IMG/VR virus record: IMGVR_UViG_2531839661_000010
Length of the DNA stretch: 44,444 bases
Source: a virus
Lineage: Duplodnaviria > Heunggongvirae > Uroviricota > Caudoviricetes
Direction: 5' to 3' (one strand)
Position 1 is the stretch's first letter; the number at the start of each line of letters is the position of its first letter. A model generated the notes under the pieces. It was not told the DNA's origin and did no database searches. It worked only from the letters and a program-made list of their open reading frames with translations. The translations under genes and the position numbers were made by a program. Positions 1,621 to 2,570 of this stretch are shown piece by piece.

Positions 1621-1796
1621 AATCATCAAACGAAACATAAAATTAATTCACATTATGAGGAAAAGTATCTTTTTTGTACTATGTAAATTCAAAGAGTTAG
1701 CCTCATTTCCCCGATGGTTTTCTCAACACTACTGGTTGTGAGCCCTTGCAATGTTCATTAATATACGTCTCACAAATAATTCATAGATATTGCAAA

Positions 1797-2570
1797 ATGG
1801 ATATTACTGAGTTTCCTTCTGGAGTAATTGAACACCTTGGCTGGTATGTATACCGATTGATTGATCCGAGGGACGGAAGCACCTTCTATGTAGGGAAAGG
1901 CAAAGGTAACCGCGTATTTGCCCATATGCGCGGTGAAGTGGCAGCGACTGATGATGACGAGTTACTGAGCAACAAGCTAAAGCAAATTAGAGAAATAAGG
2001 TTAGCAGGACTTGAGGTTATCCATGTCATCCATCGACACGGAATGACTGATGAAAAGACGGCGTACGAAGTCGAAGCAGCACTTATTGATGCCTACCCTG
2101 GGTTAACGAATATCATGAATGGTGCTGGCAGCAATGAATTCGGCGCCGCGCATGTCAAAGAGTTGATAGCAACATATCAACCCGAAACCATAACATTTCA
2201 TCATAAAGCATTAATGATTTCCGTTAACAGAAGTGCAAAGGATTCAGAGCTTTATGATGCGGTTCGATTTAGCTGGCGCATTAATGTCTCTCGCGCCAGC
2301 CAAGCAGAAGTCATTCTTGCTACTGTAAGGGGGATCGTTCGAGGGGTTTTCATTGCTGATAAATGGCTCAAATCAACACGTGAAAATTTCCCTACGATGA
2401 AATACTGGGACGAGGATCCGGACTTTGAGGCAACACAAAGTTCTCGCTATGGTTTTGAAGGTCGAGAAGCCCCACCTGAAATAGCAAATCTTTATCTTGG
2501 AAAAAAAATACCAGATGAATTAAGAAAAAAAGGAGCTATGTCCCCGGTCCGTTACTCACCTAATTTTTGA
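1797..2570 (+). CDS. GIY-YIG-motif nuclease-domain protein with an uncharacterised C-terminal domain
   Basis: N-terminus [32 protein letters not shown] fits the GIY-(x10)-YIG...R...H pattern; ATG at 1797 (ORF-track start 1746 is TTG); no clear Shine-Dalgarno, so start is uncertain. Confidence 0.5.

Follow-up and report, generated by a model that had tools for sequence, protein, structure and literature searches.

A prophage gene in the IMG/VR virus record IMGVR_UViG_2531839661_000010 (Duplodnaviria; Heunggongvirae; Uroviricota; Caudoviricetes) encodes, with a probability of about 0.95, PD-T4-3 (CMoRE), a single-protein type IV restriction endonuclease using the mechanism published for this system. 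The gene lies near the left end of the record, at 1797-2570 on the plus strand, and the whole stretch of 44,444 nucleotides is hereafter called the window. The initial annotation, made from the letters alone, had described a GIY-YIG nuclease-like gene beside an invertase and had considered it a restriction-like nuclease, possibly with a modified-base reader at the C-terminus. This interpretation was supported, because published experiments on a protein differing at four residues show the same architecture, and that near-identical protein restricts the phages T2, T4 and T6 (PMC12923530); its shortfall was that the system had already been named and characterised. The current analysis established by computation that the protein belongs to the characterised family, keeps all key residues and has the two-domain fold, and it defined the genomic setting; we infer that this allele shares the activity of the crystallised O157:H7 protein.

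The assignment was carried by full-length matches in several collections. The PADLOC model PDLC04031 (PD-T4-3) aligned with residues 1-256 of the 257 residues at an E-value of 2.4e-140, and the PHROG family phrog_5356 matched over the full length (E 2e-143). End-to-end alignments were also obtained with two sets of solved structures from the Protein Data Bank (PDB), namely 9U75/9U8D, deposited under the title '5hmC specific restriction endonuclease E. coli O157:H7 PD-T4-3' (5hmC, 5-hydroxymethylcytosine), and 9U7U/9U7Z, the closely similar protein of avian pathogenic Escherichia coli (APEC) O1. The match to 9U75 had an E-value of 3.7e-172 with four substitutions over the full length (T51 for A, E55 for D, Q169 for K and N197 for H), all of them conservative, and the match to 9U7U was likewise full length (E 1.1e-150). 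The protein is 100% identical to a cluster of 1,045 member sequences (P0001) described as 'LEM-3-like GIY-YIG domain-containing protein', and the gene is 100% identical in nucleotides to the gene annotated WP_000355484.1. Copies with 95-100% nucleotide identity were found in 838 of the 5,426 complete E. coli genomes, and more than 6,500 homologues were present in the protein collection, while an NCBIfam search of the window protein gave no match. Compared with PD-T4-3 of ECOR68, O157:H7 and APEC O1, the window protein has the same length, GIYxY-YIG motif, acidic loop, C-terminal reader and single-gene organisation, and it is essentially the same protein as the O157:H7 enzyme. No evidence contradicting the assignment was found in this analysis, and PD-T4-3 is already known, named, structurally solved and held in RefSeq, PADLOC and PHROGs. 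The functional discovery of PD-T4-3 was reportedly made by Vassallo et al. in 2022. The string 'PD-T4-3' was not found in the main text of that discovery paper, and the attribution of the name to the 2022 screen rests on three later papers citing it (PMC12923530; PMC12366544; PMC12409345) and on the name of the PADLOC model.

The N-terminal region, at 1839-2126 (plus strand), is a GIY-YIG nuclease domain spanning about residues 15-110, as indicated by Pfam, a residue check, Foldseek and published mutagenesis. The Pfam model PF22945 (LEM-3-like GIY-YIG) scored 54.2 bits over residues 28-110, its cut-off being 27 (E 2.1e-14), which puts the GIY-YIG assignment far outside chance, and the generic GIY-YIG model PF01541 reached 13.9 bits, under its cut-off of 22.6. 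The full-length AlphaFold (AF2) model, with a mean predicted local distance difference test (pLDDT) score of 80.8, matched the fold of 9u75 at an E-value of 5e-41, followed by the GIY-YIG domains of UvrC, I-TevI and T4 EndoII, with Foldseek probabilities of 0.97-0.99 to those of UvrC. The GIY-YIG pattern that the initial annotation had read in a peptide corresponding to residues 17-43, counted from the ATG at 1797, was therefore borne out, the fold being both predicted in the AF2 model and solved in 9U75. The window protein has the motif residues Y17, Y19 and Y31, the catalytic-type residues R39, E93 and N105, the tetramer-interface residues V92 and L96, and Y127 in the C-terminal domain. In an alignment of 38 homologous sequences spanning 53-85% identity, Y17, Y19, R20, Y31, R39, H43, E93, N105 and Y127 were invariant, and V92 and L96 were likewise listed as invariant. 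An acidic autoinhibitory loop, D52-D53-D54-E55, is encoded at 1950-1961 (plus strand), where the O157:H7 protein has DDDD, and residues 50-53 in this loop showed low pLDDT in the AF2 model.

The function of the system has been established experimentally. PD-T4-3 was characterised and renamed CMoRE by Liu et al. (Nat Commun 2026; PMC12923530), who credit its original identification to E. coli ECOR68. Genes from O157:H7, APEC O1 and Klebsiella lowered the plating of T2, T4 and T6 about 10^5-fold with no abortive infection, and T4(hmC) was sensitive and T4(C) resistant (PMC12923530). In purified form the enzyme binds and cleaves DNA with 5hmC or glucosyl-5hmC, but not DNA with cytosine or 5-methylcytosine (5mC), following the cleavage pattern CN11/N9G with 2-nt 3' overhangs and requiring two modified cytosines (PMC12923530). 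In the crystal structures the GIY-YIG domain at the N-terminus has one additional tyrosine (Y17, Y19 and Y31; 'GIYxY-YIG'), and active-site mutants, including those of the three tyrosines, lost function (PMC12923530). An acidic loop of 15 residues, which most members have between helices alpha2 and alpha3, shields the active site, and a 4A mutant of this loop cuts unmodified DNA and is toxic (PMC12923530). The tetramer depends on V92 and L96, as the double mutant V92S/L96S neither oligomerises nor defends, and the C-terminal domain binds 5-hydroxymethyl-dCTP (5hm-dCTP), and Y127 contacts the 5-hydroxymethyl group through its main-chain oxygen (PMC12923530). Two independent studies are in agreement: a Capnocytophaga homologue with 48% identity degrades the DNA of T4 but not that of T4-GT7 (PMC12366544), and deletion of the native gene in E. 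coli NILS69 renders the strain sensitive to Tevenvirinae phages (PMC12409345).

Following what is published for near-identical proteins, the window protein would assemble into a tetramer organised as a dimer of dimers, the C-terminal domain of which would bind DNA with 5hmC or glucosyl-5hmC, and two modified cytosines about 21 bp apart (consensus CN11/N9G) would be required. The GIYxY-YIG domain would make a double-strand cut dependent on Mg2+ or Mn2+ and leaving 2-nt 3' overhangs, and the acidic loop over the active site would repel unmodified host DNA and thereby prevent self-cleavage. As the expected outcome, the DNA of incoming T-even phages would be destroyed directly and without abortive infection, which would protect the lysogen together with its prophage; the lysogen is predicted to resist T-even phages with hydroxymethylated or glucosylated cytosine. 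The value of this assignment lies in annotation, in that a prophage cargo gene is explained, and nothing fundamentally new is implied.

Some caveats apply to this reading. Simple scans called, at their threshold, no plus-strand promoter upstream of the PD-T4-3 gene and no canonical terminator, and a clear Shine-Dalgarno sequence is absent before the ATG at 1797. Among the four differences of this allele from 9U75, E55 in place of D55 falls in the autoinhibitory loop, where the residue is still acidic. Additionally, the published ligand site lies at the edge of the C-terminal domain and comes from a free nucleotide, not from duplex DNA (PMC12923530), so that the details of base recognition are uncertain.

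The promoter result also bears on the alternative that survives best, in which the allele is silent or inactive, a cargo relic beside a decayed attachment (att) site that is either unexpressed or non-functional. Relics do occur nearby (a tRNA-Ser fragment and a fragment of the insertion sequence IS3), and the APEC O1 gene defends weakly from its native promoter (PMC12923530). This explanation was nonetheless considered very improbable, as the reading frame is intact and its product identical to the 1,045-member cluster, all functional residues are kept, the same 200 bp upstream accompany the gene at 97% identity, defence from the native promoter is strong in the case of the O157:H7 gene (PMC12923530), and the deletion in NILS69 gives a phenotype (PMC12409345). 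Even less credible is an abortive-infection or toxin-type nuclease that, on sensing infection, would attack the DNA of host and phage alike and kill the cell. The toxic 4A mutant, active on ordinary DNA, does reveal a latent non-specific activity, but cultures carrying the system grow normally at a multiplicity of infection above 1, with host DNA read depth unchanged and T4 DNA depleted (PMC12923530), and survival of infected cells with intact host DNA was reported for both the O157:H7 and ECOR68 proteins. A homing endonuclease of the I-TevI type that cuts a specific unmodified target for its own spread, or a decayed fragment of one as the initial annotation had allowed, is suggested by a weak match to the PHROG family phrog_314 'homing endonuclease' (E 0.0021), by I-TevI among the fold matches at an E-value of 0.2 and by several jumbo-phage homologues annotated 'putative homing nuclease', and was rejected as effectively refuted: the gene is full-length and conservation extends over the whole protein in more than 6,000 homologues, Pfam found no NUMOD, IENR1 or other homing DNA-binding module in the window protein or in 38 family members, the gene occupies a prophage cargo slot and lies in neither an intron nor an intein, PD-T4-3 and phrog_5356 are what it matches strongly over the full length, and the published cleavage depends on modification with little sequence specificity (PMC12923530).

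The limits of the gene were revised. The program-made list of open reading frames (ORFs) held an uninterrupted ORF at 1746-2570 (plus strand) with a TTG start at 1746, which the initial annotation had taken as the gene. The ORF is real, but translation almost certainly starts at the ATG at 1797, because the RefSeq gene, the crystallised constructs and the enterobacterial homologues all begin there: for other E. coli genomes RefSeq annotates a 774-nt gene at the corresponding position, the constructs crystallised for the PDB begin with MDITEF, and the enterobacterial homologues in the 38-sequence alignment align from the methionine encoded by this ATG. The coding sequence at 1797-2570 (plus strand), in agreement with the PADLOC, PDB and RefSeq matches, would comprise 257 amino acids and a stop codon. 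The 17 codons at 1746-1796 (plus strand), a 5' extension of the mechanical ORF, are probably not translated, to judge from the starts of the annotated and crystallised proteins, and probably represent an untranslated leader and promoter region. A weak sigma-70-like site was noticed by eye (TTGTGA at 1736-1741, a 17-nt spacer and TAATAT at 1759-1764, with 8 of 12 positions matching), which scores below the threshold of the simple promoter scan and is a suggestion only. In the lysogen, PD-T4-3 would be transcribed from a promoter of its own. At the other end of the gene, RNA folding predicted a hairpin at 2581-2639 (-19.8 kcal/mol, z-score of -3.07 versus shuffled sequences) between the stop codons of the convergent PD-T4-3 and invertase genes, overlapping the latter. 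The simple terminator scan did not call this hairpin, as it has no T-run, and it likely acts as a bidirectional terminator.

The C-terminal modification-sensing domain, at 2130-2567 (plus strand), covers about residues 112-257, including Y127, and has the CMoRE fold. The initial annotation had left about 200 residues after the nuclease pattern unassigned; a C-terminal part beyond the reach of Pfam does exist, but its length is about 145 residues, and the suggestion that it might read modified bases agrees with the published binding of 5hm-dCTP. Pfam returned nothing in these 145 residues of the window protein or of the 38 homologues, even at E-values up to 10. In fold searches the reader grouped, by weak yet consistent similarity, with PUA-like (YTH/EVE/ASCH) readers of modified bases, a distant-fold comparison that rests on the PDB only. 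The proteins of this type that were listed included YTHDC1, Mmi1 and other YTH domains, a Zymomonas ASCH protein, the 5hmC-dependent HNH enzyme VcaM4I, THYN1 (EVE) bound to 5mC DNA, PH1033 and other EVE proteins, and archaeal McrB N-terminal domains. The PUA-like link has no support at the level of sequence, because a profile of the 38 sequences searched against all PDB sequences returned only 9u75 and 9u7u, and the CMoRE paper reports no homologues for the C-terminal domain and calls its fold distinct (PMC12923530).

Two claims are put forward jointly and tentatively, at somewhat below even odds: that the C-terminal 5hmC reader is a highly diverged PUA-like reader and not a 'distinct fold', and that, in e14-like prophages, the slot past the stop codon of the pin invertase is a recurrent landing site for type IV enzymes unrelated to each other (McrA or PD-T4-3). 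If the first were true, PD-T4-3 would join the 'PUA-like reader plus nuclease' class of type IV enzymes, for which VcaM4I/TspA15I (PUA-like plus HNH) and EVE-nuclease fusions serve as comparison, and the canonical barrel pocket could be the true site of the flipped base in place of the edge site occupied by free 5hm-dCTP. The invariant C-terminal aromatic residues Y153, W160, W190, F198, Y233 and Y253 are candidate pocket residues. Confirmed on crystal coordinates, the PUA-like similarity would amount to a small correction of the literature, and it could guide mutagenesis of the enzyme as a tool for 5hmC mapping.

The second claim concerns the genomic context. PD-T4-3 lies in a module of 1,035 bp at 1599-2633 (plus strand), delimited by blastn breakpoints and lying between the relic tRNA-Ser att fragment and the stop codon of the e14-type pin invertase; besides the gene, it includes some 200 bp of upstream and 63 bp of downstream sequence. 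The breakpoints were 1599-2631 in locus L002 and 1599-2633 in L004. This module recurs alone at 97% identity in otherwise different neighbourhoods. In one strain it has a Dcm-type methyltransferase/type II restriction pair on one side and a tail-fibre assembly gene on the other, and in another strain it is flanked by lipase and acyltransferase genes. It is thus a single-gene system without a cognate methyltransferase or partner, as the module moves alone and its neighbours differ among loci. In strain H2 (L002 1919-4594), the module adjoins a DNA cytosine methyltransferase gene and a frameshifted type II restriction endonuclease gene; together with DarT/NADAR toxin-antitoxin genes at a distance of a few kb, they make up a small cluster of defence genes at a prophage remnant.

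The convergent neighbour assumed by the initial annotation to be an invertase is indeed a pin-type serine DNA invertase of 184 amino acids at 2631-3185 (minus strand), with the Pfam domains Resolvase (E 1.3e-51) and HTH_7 and 96% identity to PinE of the K-12 element e14. It lies beside an invertible tail-fibre segment of 1.8 kb at 3247-5108, bounded by 20-nt inverted repeats (3247-3266 and 5089-5108), a Pin/Gin-type arrangement with two alternative sets of tail-fibre tip and assembly genes in opposite orientation, in which Pfam detected Gp53-like_C, Caudo_TAP (twice) and Collar.

The DNA homology between the window and e14, beginning at 2630, includes pin and has its exact limit at the stop codon of this gene. 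In K-12 the order is pinE, mcrA and then the icdC end of the element, so the equivalent position that the initial annotation had given for mcrA was correct, but mcrA is co-directional with pinE and PD-T4-3 is convergent with pin. McrA (EcoKMcrA) and PD-T4-3 thus occupy the same slot, past the stop of a 96%-identical pin gene at the att-proximal end of related prophages, and the two type IV enzymes are unrelated, because they share no sequence similarity. The nuclease domain of McrA is of the HNH type, and the enzyme acts on 5mC and 5hmC. Homology with McrA was rejected (BLASTP E 2.4, with no meaningful alignment), and the two have their genomic position alone in common. Past the pin stop codon, the slot was found to hold PD-T4-3, McrA (e14), a 129-amino-acid hypothetical protein plus an IS5 element, or nothing, the empty slot being pin adjoining host genes in a limited sample of other pin loci; the comparison covers a handful of loci (window 1599-2633; L005 6241-7413; L008, L009 and L011). 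These prophages provide a clean example of unrelated type IV enzymes in the same slot beside pin.

The left boundary of the prophage also agrees with the initial annotation, which had placed the gene last before that boundary. A relic of the 3' part of a serU-like tRNA-Ser(CGA) gene, an old att site where phage-type sequence ends, was read in the sequence at 1554-1620 (minus strand), and homology breakpoints fall at 1599-1620. Rfam gave a weak tRNA-clan match at 1567-1636 (minus strand), and ARAGORN found no intact tRNA at 1554-1620, where the tRNA-Ser fragment is truncated. The segment at 1278-1620 corresponds to a second copy of the serU 3' end with about 275 bp of core-genome flank, thousands of E. 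coli genomes matching it at their serU locus up to position 1620, and a strain without PD-T4-3 (L006) shares window positions 1-1616 and then diverges. These comparisons support 1599-1620 behaving as an old att core, with PD-T4-3 as the first gene inside. The integrase, at the other end of the element (41823-42986), abuts a tRNA-Thr gene (thrW) at 43001-43076, and no direct repeat of the thrW end of at least 12 nt, which would define the present-day left att site, was found anywhere in the window. The element is probably recombinant, because its integrase end abuts tRNA-Thr without a repeat in the window, or else it carries transduced DNA of the serU flank.

To the left of the boundary, an IS3-family transposase fragment (1-186), an AraC-family regulator gene (228-980, minus strand) and the serU relic travel together as a block. 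In strain TD225-C4 (L006 3002-4618) this block lies beside ybhB/bioA (the lambda att region) and the tail-fibre genes of a different prophage, and it may represent fossil prophage cargo rather than chromosomal backbone. In O157:H7 FRIK944 (L001 1-3868), the neighbouring element left of the equivalent of the window start has a gene for a tyrosine integrase, after which come genes whose annotations name an ABC-three-component system and an AAA ATPase, a second defence-type cluster in tandem with the prophage.

Among other enzymes, the PvuRts1I/AbaSI family acts on the same substrate class as CMoRE, namely 5hmC and glucosyl-5hmC, not 5mC. Like CMoRE, these enzymes cut at a fixed distance from two symmetric modified cytosines and leave short 3' overhangs. 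With the GIY-YIG domains of UvrC, I-TevI and T4 EndoII, CMoRE has in common the catalytic fold and the Tyr/Arg/Glu/Asn constellation, but it differs from them in the extra tyrosine, in the 15-residue acidic insertion over the active site and in the coupling of the nuclease to a modification reader instead of repair partners or sequence-specific DNA-binding modules.

Full-length homologues with 38-45% identity were also observed in lytic jumbo phages whose hosts are Serratia, Pectobacterium, Pantoea, Pseudomonas and Klebsiella; examples are Moabite, 2050HW, OBP and N1M2, and the homologues often bear the annotation of a homing nuclease. The homologue gp009 of Serratia phage Moabite (L007 3001-3765) keeps Y17, Y19, Y31, R39, H43, E93 and N105 and is without the four-residue acidic autoinhibitory run, and it might serve in competition of phage against phage.
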